Origin: Candidatus Omnitrophota bacterium
GTDB taxonomy: Bacteria > Omnitrophota > Gorgyraeia > Duberdicusellales > 4484-171
Length of the DNA: 41,502 nt
Assembly: GCA_021735655.1 (NCBI GenBank)
Contig: JAIPGM010000013.1
Span: 1 to 41,502, forward strand
Direction of reading: 5' to 3'
Shown: one piece after another, positions 1 to 33,232 of the stretch
Layout of the letters: every line of letters starts with the position of its first letter
Position numbering within the stretch: position 1 is the first letter of the stretch
Position numbers and translations under genes: made by a program
The notes under the pieces: model-generated
Databases searched by the model: none
Seen by the model: only the letters and a program-made list of their open reading frames with translations
Told to the model about the DNA's origin: nothing

Positions 1-126
1 CTCCTTTACGGGGTCAATTAAGCCCCAGAAAAACAATACAACCTATAACCTATCTACTCTGTGACTATCTATTTATTCTACTGATAATCCAGAGTTTTCA
101 CCAACTATCATTGAACAATTATCGTA

Positions 127-1389
127 TCATCTCCTTTTAATTTCAACCTCTATTGGCAAGTCTTCTTTAACTCCTTGTTGACTATCTTCAAAAATAATCA
201 TGCCTCGATAAAAACCTTCGCTTACTTCTTTAGGTATCTGTAATCTAAAAATGAAATTCTTCTCGCGGGCCGAAGGAAGCTTTAAATTTGTATATACTAG
301 TTCAAACCAATCTTTTATCTGGCCGCTAGCTGATAATTTCAAGTTTAACTCTTTATCTAGACGATTTAAAAGAGTGTATTGTTGACTACGCAAAACGCCA
401 CTTACAGTTTCGATTTTTATATCTTTTGGTATTACTTCTAAGGCCGAAAGCAAATTGCCTTGAGATTCTTGGCCGAATTGAGCAACTTTTACTGAAAAAG
501 GAAACTCCTTAACTAATCTACTCGGGCCACGATAGCTAAGACGCAGCTGAGCAATATAATCACCGGCAGCTAATGTATTTGGAAAATGACCAATGAAGTA
601 TCTTCCAGCATTCGCATAAACCATGCCCTTCCCGGATCTTAGGGTTACTTCTCCTTTTCGCTTCTTATCTTTAGTCATTATTAAAACTGTGGCCTCACCG
701 CGAAAATGAACGTTTCCAGTATTTTTAACTAAGGCTGCAAAAAAACTCCCTTTCTGATTAGGGAACTCCTTAACTACTTTTCCTTTTAATCCGTTCGCCT
801 CTACCTCAGTTAAACTTTTAGAATCAATTGGTCCAGAAAAATAAAAAAAATCGTTAACCTCAGCCTGTTTTATTAAAGGTTTACTGCCCTTAACCGTAAT
901 CTGCAATAAAGAGGCTAGACGAAAAGCAACCTTTAACCCCTTTTGAGTGGTCTCTTCTTCACCAATTGGCTCAAACATTACTGCTGCGTAATAGCCACCA
1001 GAAGGAGTTCCAGCCGGAACTCTTAGCCTTAAAGGTATTTTCTTGGTAGCTAAAGGTTTAAGGCTTATTATCTTATCACGCACCTCAATCCAGTTTCCAA
1101 CACCTTTAGGGTCATCGCTAGGTTCAAGAAAAACTAACTCCCCATCCTCGCTCATGTATACTGTCTCGATATAAACCTTAGCCTTTAAGTTCCCATCAGA
1201 CCCAGAATTAGTTAATCTCAAGATAAACGATCTTGAACCTCCAGGATTCGATATAATCTCCAAGCTCGGGGGCTTAACTACCAAAGAAAAGCCTTGAGCC
1301 TGATAAGGCCCAATTAGACAAAAAAGAGTCAAAATTATGAGTAATTTTCGCATTTTATTAGTCTTTATTCTTAACTCATTATATACCAA
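127..1389 (-). CDS. Secreted protein of unknown function with a signal peptide and three tandem ~120-aa Ig-like/PapD-MSP-like beta-sandwich repeats. Start codon is TTG.
   Basis: 420-aa ORF. Hydrophobic leader LLIILTLFCLIGPYQAQG. Three segments each carry an L-x-L-x-N-x-G style beta-sandwich pattern with alternating hydrophobic residues. No catalytic motif recognised. Confidence 0.5.
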   Translation of the reverse strand: MVYNELRIKTNKMRKLLIILTLFCLIGPYQAQGFSLVVKPPSLEIISNPGGSRSFILRLTNSGSDGNLKAKVYIETVYMSEDGELVFLEPSDDPKGVGNWIEVRDKIISLKPLATKKIPLRLRVPAGTPSGGYYAAVMFEPIGEEETTQKGLKVAFRLASLLQITVKGSKPLIKQAEVNDFFYFSGPIDSKSLTEVEANGLKGKVVKEFPNQKGSFFAALVKNTGNVHFRGEATVLIMTKDKKRKGEVTLRSGKGMVYANAGRYFIGHFPNTLAAGDYIAQLRLSYRGPSRLVKEFPFSVKVAQFGQESQGNLLSALEVIPKDIKIETVSGVLRSQQYTLLNRLDKELNLKLSASGQIKDWFELVYTNLKLPSAREKNFIFRLQIPKEVSEGFYRGMIIFEDSQQGVKEDLPIEVEIKRR

Positions 1390-1452
1390 TGATTTATAAT
1401 TGTCAATTTAAAGCTAAAAATTGAAATTAGCTTGTTTTTTCAAACAAAATAT

Positions 1453-1481
1453 GTTACAGTTGAGATGGTTCATTTGATAAT
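1453..1481 (+). promoter_or_regulatory. Putative sigma70-type promoter driving the riboswitch and small-protein transcript.
   Basis: -35-like GTTACA at about 1453-1458, a 17-nt spacer, and -10 GATAAT at about 1476-1481 preceded by TG. The predicted TSS falls at about 1488, at the 5' edge of the aptamer. Confidence 0.35.
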
Positions 1482-1487
1482 TAGTTT

Positions 1488-1572
1488 TCCTTTGATAAAG
1501 GCAAATTTCGAGTGATCGAAAGACGCAAAGCCACCTGTCCTGATTAACAGGAAAGAGGGGTTACCAAAGAAC
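1488..1572 (+). promoter_or_regulatory. Candidate c-di-GMP-I (GEMM) riboswitch aptamer.
   Basis: Ordered conserved blocks: GGCAAA (1500-1505); hairpin UUUCGA-GUGA-UCGAAA with a GNRA tetraloop (1506-1521); G-ACGCAAAGCC (1522-1532); second hairpin CCUGU...ACAGG (1534-1551); GGGGUUACC (1557-1565). These match the recalled Vibrio Vc2 GEMM blocks GGCAAACC...GAAA...GGGACGCAAAGCC...GGGGUUACC in order and spacing. Confidence 0.55.
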
Positions 1573-1582
1573 GTACTCGAAA

Positions 1583-1613
1583 CCCTAAGATTTATTGCCT
1601 TAGGGTTTTTTTA
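1583..1613 (+). terminator. Intrinsic terminator / riboswitch expression platform.
   Basis: 7-bp stem CCCTAAG/CTTAGGG, 9-nt loop, followed by T8. Confidence 0.6.
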
Positions 1614-1615
1614 TT

Positions 1616-1649
1616 AACCCTTCAGTCAATATTGCCTGAAGGGTTTTTT
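1616..1649 (+). terminator. Second terminator-like hairpin, paralogous to the first. It covers the TTG at 1632 and lies just upstream of the ATG at 1662.
   Basis: 8-bp stem CCCTTCAG/CTGAAGGG, 10-nt loop, followed by T6. The loop and 3' arm share ATTGCCT with the first hairpin. Confidence 0.5.
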
Positions 1650-1661
1650 AATTTAAAGACG

Positions 1662-1991
1662 ATGAAAAACACAAGTTTCTACACAAGACGATTTAAAGGG
1701 TTGATGGCGCTAGTATGCGGGGTTTCCGTGGTTGTGGGGGCATTTTTGGCCAATCCTTGCTATGCCAAGGAAAGTAAGAGTTTCAGCATCTCGATAACTA
1801 TTCCCAAAATCATAGAACAAGTAAATAAGCCTCTTAATCCCCCTCTTCTGAGAGCAGAAGAGCCTGAAGAAAAAGACACAGGGGAAAGGGACAAAAAAAA
1901 CGAAGTCGAAGCCGACGAGAGCAATTCAAACAAGCTAGACTACCCTGAAGGCTACACGATAATCGTTAAAACTATTGTCCAAGAGCCTTAA
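1662..1991 (+). CDS. Small secreted acidic protein (~109 aa with signal peptide). Only plus-strand gene in the window. The ORF-track start at 1632 (TTG, inside the hairpin) is replaced by the ATG at 1662.
   Basis: Start MKNTSFYTRRFKGLMALVCGVSVVVGAFLANPCYA is a typical signal peptide (cleavage after CYA). Mature region is rich in E/D/K. Sits directly downstream of the riboswitch and terminator structure. Confidence 0.5.
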   Translation: MKNTSFYTRRFKGLMALVCGVSVVVGAFLANPCYAKESKSFSISITIPKIIEQVNKPLNPPLLRAEEPEEKDTGERDKKNEVEADESNSNKLDYPEGYTIIVKTIVQEP

Positions 1992-2033
1992 TTGTAACCT
2001 AACCCAACCTGAATTTAATCAAGGTATAACTTA

Positions 2034-2684
2034 TTAGGTTTGGAACAAAGTTAAAGTAACCTGTCCTAAATAGTCACCAGCTGGCTTATCCAAGCCAATT
2101 GGCAATACTCCTGGTGCGTCATTAGCATCGCCGGTACCAATGCCATAGAAAATTCTCAACCAACCACCAGCAAGCTCAAGATTAGTATAATCTATTCCAT
2201 CACTGTTAAGATAACTATACTTATTCAAATCAATAGCTGACTGTGGCCCCGTCTGCTTAACAAACACTACGTTGATATTCTGATCTAAGGTCTCCGTTCC
2301 ACCAGTTCTTACTACTGATGTCCTGGTATGTTGTATGGTCCAGCTAGGAACATTAGCAGTAATTCCGACGTCTACAGCATAGGTAAAGTCAGACCTAAAA
2401 ACATTATATTGAGAATCCAACCAAAGTTCTCCAAAGTCAACATTTCCAGCCGGAGACCAATTAGCACCAGCAATCTTGCTAATATCAACGTTAAACCCGT
2501 TCTGTTGCGGTATGTTGGCCTTGACATCATACTTGTCGGTTTGGAGGGCCGTTTGAGCAAAGCTAGTAAAAGCTAAGCTTAATGCTACCAAGAGCAAAAG
2601 ACTGATTTTGTAACTTTTTCGCCACATAACTACTCCTTTTTTTGTCTTGTCCGATTTCTGGACACTAAATATCAATAATCTCAA
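2034..2684 (-). CDS. Secreted beta-rich protein with a fimbrial-subunit-like C-terminal strand (SCPU/Csu/chaperone-usher pilin-like?). Function unknown.
   Basis: Signal peptide LLLLVALSLAFTSFAQT. Gly/Thr/Asn-rich beta composition. C-terminus PAGDYLGQVTLTLFQT resembles the G-x-Y-x-G-x-V-T-x-T-L-x-(Y/F) donor-strand motif of chaperone-usher/SCPU subunits. Confidence 0.45.
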   Translation of the reverse strand: MRLLIFSVQKSDKTKKGVVMWRKSYKISLLLLVALSLAFTSFAQTALQTDKYDVKANIPQQNGFNVDISKIAGANWSPAGNVDFGELWLDSQYNVFRSDFTYAVDVGITANVPSWTIQHTRTSVVRTGGTETLDQNINVVFVKQTGPQSAIDLNKYSYLNSDGIDYTNLELAGGWLRIFYGIGTGDANDAPGVLPIGLDKPAGDYLGQVTLTLFQT

Positions 2685-2805: not shown

Positions 2806-3603
2806 TTAAGAAGGAAAACTCTCGCTTGTTGAAGGAAATTGGCCATTTTTTACATCCTGAATAAACTTTAAAGTAGCCGAATGCACTTCCTGGCCTAAAC
2901 TTTTATAACGCCGGACGAATTTAAGTTCTTTGCCCGGATAAAGACCAAGAAAATCATAAAGAACTAAAACTTGACCATCACAATATTTACCAGCCCCAAT
3001 GCCAATGGTCGGAATCTTTAAACTTTTAGTAATCTGACGACTGACCGACAAAGGTATACACTCTAAAACTAAACTGAAAACTCCTAAATCCTCTAAAAGC
3101 TTTGCCTGGTTAAATAAATCTTTAGCTGACTTATCATCTTTACCCTGAACCTTATAGCCACCGAGAAGATGAGCAGTCTGAGGAGTAAGTCCGATATGAC
3201 CGACAACCGGAATTTTATTTTTAATTAATTTTTTTACTACCTGGGGACATTTACTAAACCATTCAATTTTAACTGCATCAGCCCCATGAGCAATAAACTT
3301 TTTAGCATAATAAAGGCATTTAGCAGGATCTTTCTGGTAACTAGCATAAGGCATGTCAGCAACTACTAAGGCTCGGGCCACCCCCCTAGCTACAGCTTGT
3401 GTATGATTAAGCATCTCAGCTATAGTTACTTCACGAGTTTCTTTTAATCCCAAAACAACATTAGCTAAAGAATCTCCGACCAAAATTATATCTATACCCG
3501 AAGCATCCAAAATCCGGGCAAAAGAATAATCATAGCAAGTAAGCACAGTTATCTTCTGCTTAGCTTTCTTGGCTAGAATATCTTTAACTTTAACCTTATT
3601 CAT
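2806..3603 (-). CDS. panB: 3-methyl-2-oxobutanoate hydroxymethyltransferase (ketopantoate hydroxymethyltransferase).
   Basis: ITVLTCYDYSFARILDASGIDIILVGDSLANVVLG and ADMPYASY are hallmark PanB blocks. Length 265 aa. Confidence 0.9.
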   Translation of the reverse strand: MNKVKVKDILAKKAKQKITVLTCYDYSFARILDASGIDIILVGDSLANVVLGLKETREVTIAEMLNHTQAVARGVARALVVADMPYASYQKDPAKCLYYAKKFIAHGADAVKIEWFSKCPQVVKKLIKNKIPVVGHIGLTPQTAHLLGGYKVQGKDDKSAKDLFNQAKLLEDLGVFSLVLECIPLSVSRQITKSLKIPTIGIGAGKYCDGQVLVLYDFLGLYPGKELKFVRRYKSLGQEVHSATLKFIQDVKNGQFPSTSESFPS

Positions 3604-4546
3604 AACTAGTTACGATTCCTCCCTCTTCAACAATAAATATTTTCGCTAATGAGGGATTTTTAATCAGAAATTTCTCTATACCCTCTCTGCCACTTATAAA
3701 AAAGGCCGTAGCCAAAGCATCGGCCACAGCGCAACTCTCGGCAATCACACTAACACTTATAATATTGCTACTAGCCGGATATCCGGTACGTGGGTCTATT
3801 AAATGAGAATAACGCTTTCCGTTTCGATCGAAAAACTGCTCATAATTGCCTGAAGTAGCTATTGACTGATTAACTATTACCTTAGTTTCAATTATCTGAC
3901 CACGTTCTCTGGGGTCTCTCACTCCAACCTGCCAAGGTTTAGCGTATTTTTTACCTAAACAATACATATCGCCGCCAGCATTGATTAAGGCCGACTTCAC
4001 ACCCTTTGCTTTTAATTTTAAAACTGCTTTATCAACCATATAACCTTTAGCGATAGCGCCCAAATCAATGACCACGCCTTTTTTATTTATTTTTATGGTT
4101 TGGTTCTCAAGATCAATCTCAAGGCCGCTAATTCCGCCTAAATCCCTAATCTGTTCAATCAAAGTTTGCGAAGGTAGTGACGTTTGATCTGTTTTCTTTA
4201 TTAACCTTTTCCAAAATTTATACAAAATACCCCGACTCACATCAAAGCTACCTTCAGTCAAATCTGTTAACTTTTTAGAAAGCTCTAAAATCTCGATTAA
4301 ATCGTCTGAAGCCTTAAATGGCACAGCATAAGTTCTGTTAAAAACTGAAATCTCTGATTCCGAATCAAAAGCATTAAAAATCTTGTTTAATCTCCTAAAC
4401 TCACTATAAACAATATTTGACGCCTCAGGATTAGGAGATGTTACCTCTAGATAAGTTCCGGCAATTACAAACTTATTTTTATATAGTGGCTTAGAGCAAG
4501 CAACTAAAAAAATTAATAGAATTAAAACTAATAGTTTTCTAATCAT
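3596..4546 (-). CDS. apbE: FAD:protein FMN transferase (ApbE family lipoprotein).
   Basis: Lipoprotein signal LVACS. IDLGAIAKGYMVDKAV is an ApbE signature. Length 316 aa. Confidence 0.85.
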   Translation of the reverse strand: MIRKLLVLILLIFLVACSKPLYKNKFVIAGTYLEVTSPNPEASNIVYSEFRRLNKIFNAFDSESEISVFNRTYAVPFKASDDLIEILELSKKLTDLTEGSFDVSRGILYKFWKRLIKKTDQTSLPSQTLIEQIRDLGGISGLEIDLENQTIKINKKGVVIDLGAIAKGYMVDKAVLKLKAKGVKSALINAGGDMYCLGKKYAKPWQVGVRDPRERGQIIETKVIVNQSIATSGNYEQFFDRNGKRYSHLIDPRTGYPASSNIISVSVIAESCAVADALATAFFISGREGIEKFLIKNPSLAKIFIVEEGGIVTSYE

Positions 4547-5827: not shown

Positions 5828-6240
5828 AGTTTTTCCATTAACTCTTTCTGCTTTTTTTCGATCAAATCGCGCTTTTTCTTGCTACGATCATCATAGCCAA
5901 TAAGATGTAAAATTCCGTGCAAGCAATAGAGCAAGACCTCTTTCTGCCAATCAACCTTTAAACTTTTAGCAACTTTTACCGCCTCCTCGACTGACACTAC
6001 TATCTCACCCAAATAATCAGGATCTAGAGGATCAGAAAGATCAAAACTAATAACATCGGTAGGGGTTGTTTTTTTTAAATAACGCTTATTTAAATTAACA
6101 ATAAAAGCGTTATCAACTAAAGTTAAAGATATCGTTTTACTAGGGATTAACAGAAGACCGGCTGCTTTTTCTAAAGATTTACTAAGAGTTTTAAGATTTA
6201 CTCTCTTTATTTTTTGACGGTTTGTTATTTCGATTTTCAT
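5809..6240 (-). CDS. ybeY: rRNA maturation endoribonuclease YbeY.
   Basis: HGILHLIGYDD metal-binding motif (H-x-x-x-H-x-x-G-Y-D). Length 143 aa. Conserved neighbourhood with 7TM-HD and recO. Confidence 0.85.
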   Translation of the reverse strand: MKIEITNRQKIKRVNLKTLSKSLEKAAGLLLIPSKTISLTLVDNAFIVNLNKRYLKKTTPTDVISFDLSDPLDPDYLGEIVVSVEEAVKVAKSLKVDWQKEVLLYCLHGILHLIGYDDRSKKKRDLIEKKQKELMEKLWLKKT

Positions 6241-7582
6241 CTTTAGGGTAGTTCACGCGAGTGTGAAATATAGCATTTAAAATGCGGGTAAAACTTTGGG
6301 TAATTTTTTCAATATCTCTTAAAGTAAGATTACACTCATCCAATTCGCCTTCCATAAACCTTTTCTTAACTACCTCTCTGACCATTTCCTCTATCCGAGC
6401 CGGGGTCGGCTCTTCAAGGGTTCGCGATAAAGCCTCAATCGTATCAGCTAAAGCCACAATGGCAGTTTCTTTAATCTGAGGTTTTGGCCCCGGATAACGA
6501 TATTCTTCTTCATGCTTTCCTTCTGGTTCAAGTTCTTTGGCCCGCTGGTAAAAAAAATAAACTAAGGTTCGTCCATGATGTTGGGCAATAAAATCAATAA
6601 TTTTAGAATTAATTCGGTATTTTTTAGCCAGATCAATCCCATCTTTTACATGGTTAAAAATAATCAACTTACTCATTGAAGGCTTAAGATTTTTATGAAC
6701 ATCACGATAACTAATTAGATTTTCTACAAAATAGTCGGGTTTTATCATCTTGCCAACATCATGATAATATGCACCGACCCGAGCGAGCAAAGGATTCGCG
6801 CCGATAGCTTCTGCAGCAGCTTCACTCAAATTAGCAACCACCAAAGAATGTTGATATGTGCCTGGAGCTGCTAAAATTAACTTCCTTAATAAAGGGTGAT
6901 TAAAATCAGACAACTCAAGCAAAGATACATTAGTAACAACTTTAAATACATATTCAAAAACCGGCTGAAACAACAAAACGATTCCTGAAGATATAACACC
7001 ATTGAGCACGCAAACCTTAAGTAAACTTAAATCAATACCCGATAGAACAAAAAGATTCTGTTCCCTTTCCATAAGAAAGGCTATCAAAAATTGAATAATT
7101 CCGGCAATTAGCCCCGCCTTAATAATCTGAAAACGCCGCCGAGCTCGATAGCTAAGCATAGCCGCAGACAGTGAACCAATGAAAAGACTAATTCCTAAAT
7201 TAAAATTTCCTCCATCGATTCCGGCGCTTAAAGCCGAAATAAAAATAATAAACAACAATGATAACTCTAGGTTGTTGAACAAAAGAGTAATCAGTATTGC
7301 AAAACCAATAGCAATAACGCCATAACCGGAAATTGGGAAAATTACAATGGTCAGGAGCGGTATCAATACAGCAATCGCAGCCAATATTGATAAGTCCAAA
7401 TAATTAGGCAGGTTGTTTATCTTTCTTAAAAAACTGGCATAGATAAAAAGAACTAAGGCTAAGGCCAGAAAAGAAAAATCAATCGAGTAGATAAAAAAAA
7501 CATAGCCAACAATCGAAAAAAAAGTTATACCAATAATAGAATTATCAAAGTTAATCCCTTTTTTAGCTATGGTAATTTTCAT
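6191..7582 (-). CDS. 7TM receptor with intracellular HD hydrolase domain (PgpH/YqfF family).
   Basis: N-terminal polytopic membrane region. C-terminal HD domain (HSLVVANLSEAAAEAIGANPLLARVGAYYHDVGK). Classic position upstream of ybeY. The stop overlaps the ybeY start by about 50 nt. Confidence 0.8.
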   Translation of the reverse strand: MKITIAKKGINFDNSIIGITFFSIVGYVFFIYSIDFSFLALALVLFIYASFLRKINNLPNYLDLSILAAIAVLIPLLTIVIFPISGYGVIAIGFAILITLLFNNLELSLLFIIFISALSAGIDGGNFNLGISLFIGSLSAAMLSYRARRRFQIIKAGLIAGIIQFLIAFLMEREQNLFVLSGIDLSLLKVCVLNGVISSGIVLLFQPVFEYVFKVVTNVSLLELSDFNHPLLRKLILAAPGTYQHSLVVANLSEAAAEAIGANPLLARVGAYYHDVGKMIKPDYFVENLISYRDVHKNLKPSMSKLIIFNHVKDGIDLAKKYRINSKIIDFIAQHHGRTLVYFFYQRAKELEPEGKHEEEYRYPGPKPQIKETAIVALADTIEALSRTLEEPTPARIEEMVREVVKKRFMEGELDECNLTLRDIEKITQSFTRILNAIFHTRVNYPKDENRNNKPSKNKESKS

Positions 7583-11180: not shown

Positions 11181-14100
11181 TTATAAAACAAGGGATAAAT
11201 TATCACTACCGACCACCGAAGAGACCTCTTTTAAGGCCTGCTCGTTAACGGTAATACTAAAGGAATTGGCAGTTTTAACCTTAACCCCGCCGAATCTAGG
11301 ATCCTTGAAAGAAAAAAGAATCGGGACATCGCCCTTATTATCAGTAAAAACTTTCTTTAGCTTATCTAGCGGCAAACCATTACCTTCAATAAAAATATTC
11401 ATCTGCTTAATACTATCAACTAACTTATCTACCGGTATAATCTTAGAAGCTAATATCTTAGGTACTCGTTCTTTAGACTCAACTTGACCTTTTAAAGTTA
11501 TAACTATCTTTTCTCGTAGGTACATTCCGGCCTCCTCAAAGAGACGCGGAAAAACAAAAACTTCAATACTGCCGGTTTCATCTTCGATCTTTAAAATGGC
11601 CATTCGCTGGCCTTTCTTGCGAGTAGTAATCAGACGTAGCTTCTCAATCACCCCGCAGACTATCACTTCCTGACGCATTGGACGCTCATAGAGCGAAGAA
11701 ATTCTTTCTCGTTTAACATAATTAATAACATCCGAATAAGAACGCAGAGGGTGCCCGGTTAAATAAATACCCAAAAGCGACTTTTCAAAGTTTAAAATCT
11801 GGGAAATCGGCCACTCTTCAACATCAGGAATTGTTTCATCTTTAGGCATTTCAAAAAGCATAAGTTGAGAAGCATCTCTTTTTTTACCACCCTTTTCCAA
11901 TAATCTATCTAAAAGCGCTACCATCTGAGCACGTTTTAATCCAAAAGAATCCATAGCTCCTACTTTTACAAGGCTCTCATTAACCTTTTTATTAACTACC
12001 CGCGAATCCACTCGCTCACAAAAATCAAAAATACTCTCAAACTTAGCCTCTTTTCTCATAGCAATAATACTTTCTAGGGCTACTTGGCCTACGTTCTTAA
12101 TTGCCAAAAGGCCAAATCGAATATTGTTATCATCAGTTACCGTAAAATTAGCAAAACTAGTATTTATATCCGGAGGAAGAACTTTAATTTTCATTTGAGC
12201 CGATTCATTAACATACTCAACAATCTTATCAGTATTATTACGCTCGCTAGTTAAAAGAGCAGCCATAAACTCAACTGGATAGTTTGCCTTTAGATAAGCT
12301 GTACGATAAGAAATCATGGCATAGGCAGCCGAATGACTACGGTTAAATCCATAACCGGAAAAATAATCGATCAAATCAAAAATTTGGTTAGCGATTGAAG
12401 CCGGAATTTTATTCTTAGCACAACCCTCCATAAACAAATGTCGCTGCTCATCCATAATTTCAGGAATCTTCTTGCCGATAGCCTTACGCAAAAGATCGGC
12501 CCGGGACATATCAAATCCAGCCAGCTTTGAAACTATTTGCATAATCTGCTCTTGATAGAGAATTATTCCATAAGTTGTTTTTAAGATTGATTCGAGAGCC
12601 GGATGAATATAGGTAATCTGTCTTTTGCCCTGTTTGCGGTTAATAAAATCATCAACCATGCCGCTGCCTAAAGGTCCCGGACGATACAAAGCTAAAACAG
12701 CAATTAAATCCTCAAACTTAGTTGGAATCATCTTAGTTAAGATGCCTCTCATCCCTCTACTTTCAAGCTGAAACACTCCAACTGTATCGCCCTTAGCCAG
12801 GAGTGAAAAGGTTTTTTTATCATTAAGTGGAATCTTAGCGATATCTACGTCCTTACTTTTAGTTCGCCTGATAATTTTTACGGTCTCTTCAATTACAGTA
12901 AGAGTCTTAAGGCCTAAAAAATCCATCTTAAGCAATCCGGTCTTCTCAAGTGACCCCATATCAAAACCAGTAACCGTCTCACCATCAGAACCTTTGATTA
13001 AAGGCACTCTTTCTATTAAGGGCCGATCAGATATCACAACTCCCGCCGCATGGGTTGAAGCATGTCGCGAAAGACCTTCCAACTGCATAGCCACATCAAT
13101 AAGGCGCTTTATCCGAGCATCAGCATCGTAGGCTTCCTGAAGTTCCGGACTTAAAGATAAGGCACCTTTTAAAGTTGTGTTTTGACCAGGGGTATAAGGA
13201 ATCATCTTGGCTATTCTATCGACTTCGGAATAGTTTAATCCCATAACCCTACCAACATCTCTAACTACGGCTCGGGCTAACATAGTTCCAAAAGTAATAA
13301 TCTGGGCAACACAATCCTTACCGTATTTTTTTGCTACATACTCTAAAACCTGAGCTCTTTTTTCATAACAAAAATCAATATCAATATCAGGCATTGAAAT
13401 TCGTGCTGGGTTCAAAAACCGCTCAAAAAGAAGCTGATAAGCCAAAGGATCAATATCGGTTATCTTCAAAAGATAGCTAACAATACTTCCAGCGGCCGAT
13501 CCTCGACCGGGTCCCACTGGGATATGATTCTCTTTAGCAAATTTAATTAAATCCCAAATAATTAAAAAATAGCTGGCAAAACCAGTTTTCTTAATTACAC
13601 CCAACTCATAGTCCAAGCGATCCTTAACTTCTTTATTGACTTTAGGATAACGTTCACTTAGATTTTGAACGCAAATTTTTTTAAGATAGTCTTCCTCGAC
13701 TTCGGTTTCCGGTAAAGGAAAATGCGGCAAGTGTATTTTAGAAAAATCCATAGTCAGATTACACTTTTGAGTAATCTCTAAGGTATTTTTTATAGCCTGG
13801 GGAATTTCTTTAAAAAGATCCTTCATCTCAGCAGGCGTACGAAAATAAAACGTATCGCTATTGAATTTAAAACGCTTAGGATCAGATAACATCCCCTGGG
13901 TCTGGATAGCTAAAAGTGCCTCATGAGCAAAAGCTTCTTCTTTCTCTAAATAATGGATATCGTTAGTAGCTACCAAGGGTATTCCCAGCTCTTTTGAAAT
14001 CTTAACTAGTTCAGAATTTATTTTCTTCTGCTCGTCAAGCCCATTCTCCATAACTTCAAGATAAAAGTTACCTTTACCAAAAATATTTAAATATTTATCA

Positions 14101-31981: not shown

Positions 31982-33232
31982 TTAATCTTTAAATATATTT
32001 TCATTTATTTTTATTCCCTTCTTTTTAAACAATGAGAAGAAATTCGGTTTACCATAGGCTTTGAATTTACCTTGAGAAACTAAATCTTCACTCACCCCTT
32101 CTGATTCATAACGAAAAATATCTTTAAGAATGATATGGTTATCTTTTAAGTCCTGCACTTCAGTAAGATAAGTTATCTTTCGTGAACCGTCAATAAGTTG
32201 CTCGTGTTGAACAATTAAATCTAAACCATAGGCAATCTGCTCACGAATCGCCCAAGTAGGCAAATTAAGGCTTGCATAAAGTGCTGTAGTCTCTAAACGA
32301 GTTAGGGTGTCCATTGGATTAGAAGCATGAATTACCGCAAGTGAACCCTTATGTCCGCTATTTAAAGCCTGAAGATAATCCATCGCCTCCTCACTTCTAA
32401 TTTCCCCCAAAATAATTCTGGTCGGACGCATACGCAGGGTATTGCAGAATAAATCCCGAATAGCAACTTCACCCTTTCCCTCAATATTCGGCGGACGAGT
32501 CAAAAGACGTACAACATGATCCTGGCGTAAAGTCAACTCCAAAGCATCCTCAATAGTAATAATCCGCTCATCAGGACCAATCGAAGAAGAAAGTACCTCT
32601 AAAGTCGTAGTCTTACCGCTTCCAGTAGCTCCGGAGAAAAGAATATTAGCCCTAACTTTAATGCAAGCAGTTAAAAACTCAGCCATCCGATCGTCAATCG
32701 TGCCTAATTTCACTAAATCGTTAACAGTTTCGATCGAACGTAAAAACTTTCTAACGGTTACCGTTGCTCCACCCACTGAAAGCGGCGGCAAAATAACATT
32801 TACCCGGGAACCGTCTTCTAGAGCAAAATCAACATAAGGATAGCTCTCATCAACCCTTCTTCCGGTAGGTTGAATCATCTTTTCAACGATATATCTTAAG
32901 TGGTCGCTGTTTTCAAATTTTATTTTAGTCTTGCCTTTTTTGCCGGCTTTTTCGATATATACCTTTTCGGGGCCATTAATCATAATTTCAGTTATGTCTG
33001 GGTCATCCATCAGCTTCTGTATCGGACCTAAGCCGGTATAATCAGCGCATAAGGACTGAATTATTTGCTCCTTATCTTCCTTTTTAAGATCAAGATAATG
33101 ACCTTGTTCAACCTTATGCTTGAAAAAAAGTTCGGCTCGCTCACGAATAAAATCTTCACTTAATTTTTGTGCCTCACCGACCCAAAGACTTATCTCTTTT
33201 CTGACGTCATTCTTAATTTTACCTAGATCCAT
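31982..33232 (-). CDS. CpaF/TadA-family secretion ATPase (type II/IV secretion NTPase, VirB11-like), orphan.
   Basis: Walker A SGATGSGKTT. IITIEDALEL. GEIRSEEAMDYLQALNSGHKGSLAVIHASN (CpaF His-box). Length 416 aa. Confidence 0.8.
   Translation of the reverse strand: MDLGKIKNDVRKEISLWVGEAQKLSEDFIRERAELFFKHKVEQGHYLDLKKEDKEQIIQSLCADYTGLGPIQKLMDDPDITEIMINGPEKVYIEKAGKKGKTKIKFENSDHLRYIVEKMIQPTGRRVDESYPYVDFALEDGSRVNVILPPLSVGGATVTVRKFLRSIETVNDLVKLGTIDDRMAEFLTACIKVRANILFSGATGSGKTTTLEVLSSSIGPDERIITIEDALELTLRQDHVVRLLTRPPNIEGKGEVAIRDLFCNTLRMRPTRIILGEIRSEEAMDYLQALNSGHKGSLAVIHASNPMDTLTRLETTALYASLNLPTWAIREQIAYGLDLIVQHEQLIDGSRKITYLTEVQDLKDNHIILKDIFRYESEGVSEDLVSQGKFKAYGKPNFFSLFKKKGIKINENIFKD

Follow-up and report, generated by a model that had tools for sequence, protein, structure and literature searches.

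PapD-type chaperones bind pilins by beta-strand augmentation and, to our knowledge, chaperones of this fold have been described only together with ushers. Similarly, secretins are known to us only within large energised machines, namely the type II secretion system (T2SS), type IV pili, Tad, the type III secretion system (T3SS) and filamentous phage, and a secretin paired only with a periplasmic immunoglobulin (Ig)-fold chaperone is not among the described uses of which we are aware. In the WxL/Csc clusters of Bacillota, WxL proteins are encoded together with a WxLIP protein (DUF916-DUF3324-transmembrane helix) and a small LPXTG protein (PMC1534035; PMC10599100), and AlphaFold2 (AF2) modeling placed a strand of the WxLIP beta-hairpin into the WxL domain, beside the WxL N-terminus (PMC10599100). 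The locus described here occupies positions 127 to 2,684 of contig JAIPGM010000013.1 from a Candidatus Omnitrophota bacterium (assembly GCA_021735655.1), of which positions 1 to 41,502, hereafter the window, were analysed. It contains three genes for secreted proteins, designated A, B and C. Together, C, A, a gene of outer-membrane type and a B gene gated by a riboswitch for cyclic diguanosine monophosphate (c-di-GMP) constitute a conserved module of Omnitrophota, in which A is a distant WxLIP homologue with the architecture of a PapD-type chaperone.

The module resembles the WxL clusters in its gene order, in which a secreted protein of ~200 amino acids (aa) is followed by a WxLIP-like gene, as C is followed by A. 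The likeness extends to the coexistence of small, domain-only proteins with large ones carrying an N-terminal functional domain, represented here by fusions of a GH26 domain to the C domain, and to the presence in both of a small secreted protein of ~100 aa. On the other hand, the module belongs to a diderm host, includes a dedicated outer-membrane gene and, in the window, an A protein with a third domain, and it is devoid of three hallmarks of these clusters, the WxL domain, the WxLIP transmembrane helix and the LPXTG protein. We also know of no WxL cluster controlled by a c-di-GMP riboswitch. A WxL and DUF916/DUF3324 gene pair was also observed on a Bacillus anthracis pXO1-type plasmid (L079 3822-5583), beside a CpaF/VirB11-family ATPase gene and duplicated 67-aa membrane peptides.

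A conserved gene module in Omnitrophota

Species-representative genomes were scanned with the C family, which retrieved 66 loci (numbered with the prefix L), nearly all from Candidatus Omnitrophota, and the open reading frames (ORFs) called in these loci were then searched with a profile of each component. An A homologue was the next gene after C in 52 of the 56 loci having room for it, and the gene after A was of outer-membrane type in 46 of 48, corresponding to a protein of ~910-1000 aa, here named X, in 45 loci and to a secretin in one. A small B homologue was found convergent after X in 34 of 42 cases and elsewhere within the locus in some others, and several operons carried two or three C paralogues. 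This synteny was kept across loci whose flanking genes differed. The recurrence of the same gene and riboswitch arrangement in dozens of independent loci argues that the trio seen in the window is not a chance neighbourhood, and the three genes and a GEMM element, grouped in the initial annotation of the window, were recovered together in relatives. No account of such a module was found in the literature searched on c-di-GMP in Omnitrophota, on DUF916 and WxLIP, and on PapD-like proteins combined with a secretin, whose coverage was incomplete, and within that range the suggestion that the system is undescribed held.

The features of the locus are collected in Table 1. The three ORFs originally proposed do exist at their positions, but their likely starts make them shorter than the longest ORFs first supposed, A being 408 rather than 420 aa long and C 197 rather than 216 aa. 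These shorter versions are identical to the products in the deposited annotation of the contig, and the TTG start of the 420-aa version of A falls within a promoter-like site. This perfect sigma-70-like site of A is divergent from the riboswitch transcript. All three proteins present an N-terminus resembling a signal peptide (basic, then hydrophobic, as read by eye from the sequence), and the computed isoelectric points of the mature forms are basic for A (9.5) and acidic for both B (4.7) and C (4.3).

Table 1. Features of the module in the window and at related loci (window positions unless a locus is named; bp, base pairs)
Feature	Position	Strand	Remarks
Contig edge	1-40	-	Small hairpin GGGGC..GCCCC, then Shine-Dalgarno-like GTAAAGGAG at the very last bases
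Gene A	127-1353	-	ATG at 1353, 408 aa; secreted basic three-domain beta-sandwich protein; putative periplasmic chaperone or adaptor
TTGACA-17-TATAAT promoter-like site	1378-1406	-	12 of 12 sigma-70-type positions, just 5′ of A; a consensus match alone
GTTACA-17-GATAAT promoter-like site	1453-1481	+	9 of 12 positions in a consensus scan; placement would suit the start of the riboswitch transcript
c-di-GMP-I (GEMM-I) aptamer	1490-1568	+	Score of 65.5 bits for Rfam RF01051 (gathering score 35; E 9e-11)
Terminator hairpin 1	1579-1612	+	11-bp stem, then U7; UUGCCUU in loop and 3′ arm complementary to AAGGCAA of the aptamer 5′ strand
Terminator hairpin 2	1616-1649	+	Long stem, then U6; 5′ of the B start codon (ViennaRNA folds)
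Gene B	1662-1991	+	ATG at 1662, 109 aa; riboswitch-gated secreted mini-protein
Gene C	2034-2627	-	ATG at 2627 behind AAGGAG, 197 aa; secreted acidic all-beta protein; probable cargo or subunit of the module
ORF of ~75-100 aa between aptamer and B	L045 16432-16689; L041 12672-12944; L072 6594-6827; 11 more loci (strand given for the three named)	-	
GH26-C fusions	L055 1771-3276; L044 8362-9891; L010 392-1855; L030 2861-4426		

Proteins A and C and their probable outer-membrane partner

The AF2 model of A, computed from an 18-sequence alignment, comprised three beta-sandwich domains with a predicted local distance difference test (pLDDT) value of 86.6. The three Ig-like repeats initially read from the sequence were therefore borne out in substance: domain 3 repeats domain 1 (BLASTP E 5e-5), while domain 2 is a beta-sandwich of a different type. 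Domains 1 and 2 are the counterparts of the two domains in the ~290-aa A homologues that accompany X. The fold comparisons of A revealed matches to pilus chaperones over ~172-186 residues, spanning two domains, with scores of 13.0 for CfaA, 11.7 for FimC, 11.6 for SafB, 11.2 for CsuC and 11.0 for PapD, besides a score of 11.6 over 156 aligned residues for EcpB, and many PapD-like/MSP/ASH domains were also among the matches. No PapD-family sequence signature was detected in the Pfam scans of A. At the sequence level, a profile of 65 A-family sequences matched EfmWxLIP1 with an E-value of 5.5e-5, spanning both domains end to end, whereas the same profile matched EcpB with an E-value of only 0.07. 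Moreover, the window protein alone gave a sub-threshold match to Pfam WxLIP_PGBD, one A orthologue carries the NCBI name 'DUF916 domain-containing protein', and the DUF916 (PGBD) and DUF3324 (HBD) Ig-like domains of WxLIP proteins were both found in A. The profile, Pfam and NCBI evidence, together with the chaperone fold matches, establishes that A is a distant WxLIP homologue with PapD-type chaperone architecture. The chaperone-like character first attributed to it thus stood as far as the PapD-like fold is concerned, but it was incomplete, since the sequence relationship is to WxLIP. Distant A/WxLIP-like homologues were also encountered in bacteria of the Candidate Phyla Radiation (Saccharimonadales and Moranbacteria; P0011, P0169 and L074/L075 6001-6999), where no WxL Pfam neighbours were present beside them and the operon neighbours were unannotated secreted proteins.

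The C family proved to be much larger than a word-indexed search indicated: such a search returned six relatives only, while an exhaustive profile search returned 301 cluster representatives, of which 79 had E-values below 1e-30. Its members, nearly all ~190-230 aa long with a signal peptide, share a GGWLRIYYGIATG block and end in a G-x-Y-x-G-x-V-T-L-T-L strand. The window protein ends in G-D-Y-L-G-Q-V-T-L-T-L, in which G184, Y186 and G188 reach 90% conservation or more among 121 family members; the C-terminal motif singled out in the initial annotation is therefore a conserved property of the homologues. The same motif had been taken as a sign of an SCPU or chaperone-usher fibre subunit, for which the sequence tests offered no support: C-family members matched no Pfam family, no NCBIfam match was obtained, and the C profile matched no PDB sequence, so that membership among these pilins was rejected. 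A WxL identity was also considered, some motifs looking alike by eye (FG; V.D..G..W.L; Y...LT.L..P), but the Pfam and hhalign comparisons described below did not support it. The AF2 model of C, built on a 121-sequence alignment, was an all-beta domain with a pLDDT of 94.5, in which residues 27-44, directly after the signal peptide, received no strand assignment. It had no close structural neighbour, and the best but weak matches included the donor-strand fibre subunits CanX, DUF1102, TasA, TLP and ABP.

In addition to the stand-alone C proteins, eight loci encode, in the same operons, proteins of ~500 aa in which an N-terminal GH26 (mannanase-family) domain is followed by a C-terminal C domain. 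These fusions would fit a role of the C domain in surface display or anchoring equally well as a pilin role.

Placed beside chaperone-usher pili (Pap/Fim, CFA/I, Csu), the module appears to share a putatively periplasmic two-domain PapD-fold protein, encoded next to small acidic beta-sandwich subunits and an outer-membrane gene, a conserved terminal strand on the subunit and two-domain 'tip-like' variants. It differs from them in having no usher (PF00577), the channel being a secretin or X, and in a C protein with no pilin or SCPU Pfam match. The likeness to TasA/TapA fibres, archaeal bundling pili and cannulae lies in the structural matches of C just mentioned; no sequence relationship, SipW-type peptidase or camelysin/TasA Pfam match was found for the module, and TasA/TapA-type fibres themselves have neither a PapD-like chaperone nor a secretin. 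TasA polymerises under the control of a strand contributed by TapA, and this is the logic proposed below for B.

A probable outer-membrane partner was identified in relatives of the window. In L005, from a relative 55% identical, a secretin gene at 2912-3991 matched Pfam Secretin (7.6e-24), Secretin_N and STN/N0, and in L008 a secretin gene at 12252-13931 matched Pfam Secretin (2.8e-42) and bore a C-terminal TonB_C tail; in both, the secretin is translationally coupled to A, the A stop codon being overlapped by the secretin start. The stretch 9926-13931 of L008, with C, B, A and secretin, is the closest complete module. The secretins of relatives have the canonical layout (N0/STN, N1 and secretin domain) found in the secretin machines GspD, PilQ, RcpA/CpaC, T3SS and pIV, but unlike those machines they have no ATPase, platform, (pseudo)pilin, prepilin peptidase or injectisome gene beside them. 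In fact, the L008 module lies between panB and purB/purL/purQ with no genes for type II, III or IV secretion at its flanks, and inner-membrane platform, ATPase and (pseudo)pilin genes were also lacking near the secretins of L006 and L007, where more remote, four-domain A homologues adjoin secretins and secreted proteins of ~220-250 aa. In the sampled loci, the longer A proteins (three domains in the window clade, more in L006 and L007) were paired with a secretin and the two-domain A proteins with X. Separately, the only T2SSE-family ATPase gene of the window (416 aa) was noted at 31982-33232 on the minus strand, 30 kb from the module, amid the housekeeping genes gcpE, proS, nusA and infB.

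The X proteins (e.g., L029 11416-14325 and ~50 other loci) combine TPR repeats, PF13629, ~500 Gly/Tyr/Arg/Trp-rich residues with no known domain, and two SdrD_B-like domains. PF13629, the 'pilus formation protein N-terminal' domain, is one that Tad secretins likewise carry at their N-terminus. X was rejected both as a divergent secretin (hhalign probability 1%) and as an usher, since Pfam Usher (PF00577) was absent from the scans of 24 X members, as it was from those of the secretins; the absence of an usher noted in the window thus extends to the relatives, in which the gene after A is a secretin or X. X may represent a new family of outer-membrane exporters.

As for the window itself, the contig terminates 126 nucleotides (nt) past A. 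An independent Logan assembly (L001) breaks at the same place, both contigs stopping ~16-126 nt past A, which suggests a repeat or coverage problem where the secretin would be expected. A further gene probably begins just outside the window, past the Shine-Dalgarno-like GTAAAGGAG, and, judging from the L005 and L008 sequences, the exporter of the window clade would be a stand-alone secretin that the window contig ends too early to include.

The c-di-GMP-I riboswitch and its small secreted cargo

The window aptamer is a full-length match, covering model positions 1-87 of 87, and it reached 80 bits with a custom covariance model for which 14 orthologous aptamers were used. The first ORF to follow it is B, and the association is general: an Rfam c-di-GMP-I or c-di-GMP-I-GGC aptamer lay 5′ of B in all 14 loci tested, and the custom covariance model recovered a same-strand aptamer 5′ of B in 39 of 42 B genes. 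The identification of B as the cargo of the riboswitch, already made from the window alone, was therefore corroborated in its orthologues. Of the three B genes with no aptamer, two are cut by contig ends, and the third is that of L008, with just 67 nt between B and A. The aptamers of L010, L012, L014, L020, L037, L038, L048, L057 and L072 are among the many best scored as c-di-GMP-I-GGC (RF03167), and extra c-di-GMP-type aptamer matches with no associated B gene were located in the flanks, all on the plus strand, at L070 665-752, L011 2976-3071, L026 7806-7894 and L025 7234-7323.

The two terminators of the window leader were found in ViennaRNA folds, their hairpin loops exceeding the 8-nt limit of a terminator scan that missed both. 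In the orthologous leaders, at least one terminator was present in 38 of 38 and two in 28 of 38, all beginning after the aptamer. The sole conserved alternative pairing joins the aptamer 5′ strand AAAGGCAAAC with the loop and 3′ arm of terminator 1, GUUUGCCUU; its mean energy was -10.2 kcal as against -6.0 kcal for shuffled sequences, with z < -1.64 in 18 of 30 leaders, and in the window the corresponding values were -9.4 and -5.2 kcal. Since aptamer and terminators do not overlap, an aptamer locked by its ligand could not block the terminators, and ligand binding should terminate transcription. The element is thus probably an OFF switch, in which bound c-di-GMP leads to termination.

Like the GEMM-I riboswitches Vc2 of Vibrio cholerae and Cd1 of Clostridioides difficile, the latter of the OFF type, the window aptamer passes the gathering score, and its expression platform makes use of intrinsic terminators. 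GEMM-I cargo is typically an envelope or surface factor, and B appears to be of this kind. The module is set apart from those riboswitches by the nature of its cargo, secreted mini-proteins of ~100 aa, by conserved tandem terminators and by many aptamers of the GGC variant. Elsewhere, the window encodes, at 6191-7582 on the minus strand in a ybeY/recO neighbourhood, a membrane protein with 7TMR-HD and HD domains, which we take to resemble the architecture of PgpH-type cyclic-dinucleotide phosphodiesterases.

Mature B of the window has ~74 aa and consists of a strand motif at the N-terminus, SISITIPKII, and a C-terminal strand, IIVKTIVQEP, with a variable acidic linker between them, and it carries neither an LPXTG motif nor a C-terminal membrane anchor. 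The alignment of 40 orthologues revealed that signal peptide, N-terminal motif, variable acidic linker and C-terminal strand are common to all. The mature N-terminus reads S-x-T-I-x-[IV]-S-C-T-I-P-x-I-P-G-V-N-A-P in the orthologues and SFSISITIPKIIEQV in the window, and the extreme C-terminus of the orthologues reads V-x-V-K-T-I-Y-S-R. A regular expression derived from B occurred at the mature N-termini of 54 of 143 C-family proteins against 0.95 expected by the background rate, with two occurrences only elsewhere in C proteins, and it was again at C N-termini that a short hidden Markov model (HMM) of the motif found its best matches. In GH26-C fusions, the motif stands at the junction between the GH26 and C domains. 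A shared N-terminal motif of B and C is therefore suggestive, and on these sequence grounds B resembles a C protein of which little more than the terminal strands is left. A comparable relation was seen in one Enterococcus WxL cluster, whose small LPXTG protein has an N-terminal motif in common with the neighbouring WxL protein (GGITFYDEETT versus NGTITYEEDTT).

Between the c-di-GMP aptamer and B, 14 loci carry a conserved ORF of ~75-100 aa with the pattern QRVVTFLNREEVDFLDKLGKDALFSTG.KLSRAKLIAWLVDF, which is missing from the window and had no Pfam match. The pattern was presumed to be ribbon-helix-helix-like, and in those loci the riboswitch would gate a putative DNA-binding protein in addition to B.

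Possible mechanism and its alternatives

The reading favoured here, about evenly balanced between holding and failing, is that of a self-contained envelope module that places C-domain proteins on the surface of a diderm cell. Acidic C and basic A, with their signal-peptide-like N-termini, would both be exported by Sec, and periplasmic A would bind C by beta-strand augmentation, by analogy with PapD and pilins and with the AF2-predicted contact of WxLIP and WxL. A would then pass C to the dedicated outer-membrane component, a secretin in the window clade and X in most other Omnitrophota; this step follows the observed gene order, with function conjectured from it, and in the window the secretin probably lies just past the edge. 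On the surface, C and GH26-C could form a complex or short polymer through their edge strands, and B might mimic a strand and in this way cap the assembly, compete with it or tether it. B would be made at low c-di-GMP and switched off at high c-di-GMP.

Several observations weigh against this account. The C-terminal transmembrane helix of WxLIP is not present in A, which ends in LPIEVEIKRR after its last beta-strand, with no helix in the model. C-family members, 121 in one scan and 29 in another, gave no Pfam WxL match at E-values as high as 10, and the alignment of the C family to WxL with hhalign had a probability of 2%, although the WxL alignment, of five plasmid-derived proteins, was small enough to miss a very remote relationship. 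The location of X in the outer membrane is deduced from its domains alone, and window positions 1-126, after A, contain stops in all frames, no ORF and no tblastn secretin match. The full module of L008 has a B gene but no riboswitch, which indicates that riboswitch control is not obligatory, and the OFF direction is itself deduced from the leader architecture. Finally, the role given to B is hypothetical and built on short motifs, the short HMM of its N-terminal motif reaching a maximum of only 10 bits against C.

A different outcome of the same parts would be a fibre assembled by donor-strand exchange, a 'chaperone-secretin pilus' in which C would polymerise, the N-terminal strand of each subunit entering the one after it, with A as chaperone, secretin or X in place of the usher, GH26-C as tips and B as terminator or nucleator, following a PapH- or TapA-like logic. 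This is rather doubtful, even with a two-domain PapD-like chaperone fold in A, a basic chaperone facing an acidic subunit, residues 27-44 of C devoid of strand in the monomer model, a conserved alternating N-terminal motif common to C and B, a conserved strand that terminates C, and both C paralogues and two-domain fusions within operons. The position of the N-terminal motif at the GH26/C junction weakens the case for a free donor arm and suggests that the C domain begins with this strand; in addition, the C monomer is predicted with confidence as an apparently complete domain, and WxLIP, the detectable sequence homologue of A, is not known as a fibre builder. If B were instead an anchor, equivalent in a diderm cell to CscD, the small LPXTG protein of WxL clusters, it would hold A or C by its N-terminal strand and attach to the outer-membrane component by its conserved C-terminal one. 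Its conservation beside the module and its layout, which resembles the Enterococcus small LPXTG protein in having a signal peptide, a strand motif, a low-complexity linker and a C-terminal anchoring element, would agree with such a role, but an anchor turned off at high c-di-GMP would run counter to the common association of adhesion with high c-di-GMP levels, provided that the OFF direction is right, no sequence homology between B and LPXTG proteins was detected, and the comparison draws on a single Gram-positive cluster, all of which makes it quite unlikely.

The direction of the riboswitch has its own alternative, an ON or translational element through which c-di-GMP would induce B as a positive factor of surface assembly. 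Both ON and OFF c-di-GMP riboswitches exist, and the minimum-energy fold of the whole leader keeps aptamer and terminators together even with no ligand, so that the unliganded state is not clearly one of read-through. On balance this direction is unlikely, because the terminators start after the aptamer in every leader and a folded aptamer could not prevent them, and because the conserved alternative pairing uses the aptamer 5′ strand, which is available only when the aptamer is unfolded. It is far less probable still that the genes are mere neighbours with no joint function, C then being an ordinary binding protein that is secreted, A a surface protein of Ig repeats unrelated to it and B a peptide under separate c-di-GMP regulation; they do lie on different strands in the window, and A does have its own promoter-like site, but the conserved C-A and A-X/secretin adjacencies, the presence of B and riboswitch beside most loci with differing flanks, and the overlapping stop and start codons that tie A to the secretin speak strongly against it.

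Beyond the favoured surface module, a more ambitious proposal can be put forward, one that is improbable as a whole: an ATPase-free 'chaperone-secretin' pathway in which Sec-exported subunits, held by the PapD-fold chaperone, would be threaded through a dedicated secretin or, in most Omnitrophota, through X, and that builds a donor-strand-linked, GH26-carrying fibre, with B, under the control of an OFF riboswitch, capping or nucleating it, and that forms an evolutionary link between WxL systems and chaperone-usher systems. If true, a chaperone-secretin pathway would be a fourth mode of secretin use. The four genes are all small enough for synthesis and testing in E. coli.

The module unites a secretin and a PapD-fold protein in a compact set of four genes, in a phylum of mostly uncultured, partly host-dependent nanobacteria. 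It also provides a diderm relative for the poorly understood WxL/WxLIP proteins of Gram-positive bacteria, which could clarify the function of WxLIP as a strand-augmenting chaperone or adaptor. Moreover, it offers a concrete class of cargo for many c-di-GMP-I and c-di-GMP-I-GGC riboswitches, that of tiny secreted proteins that appear to share the strand motif of the exported subunit.

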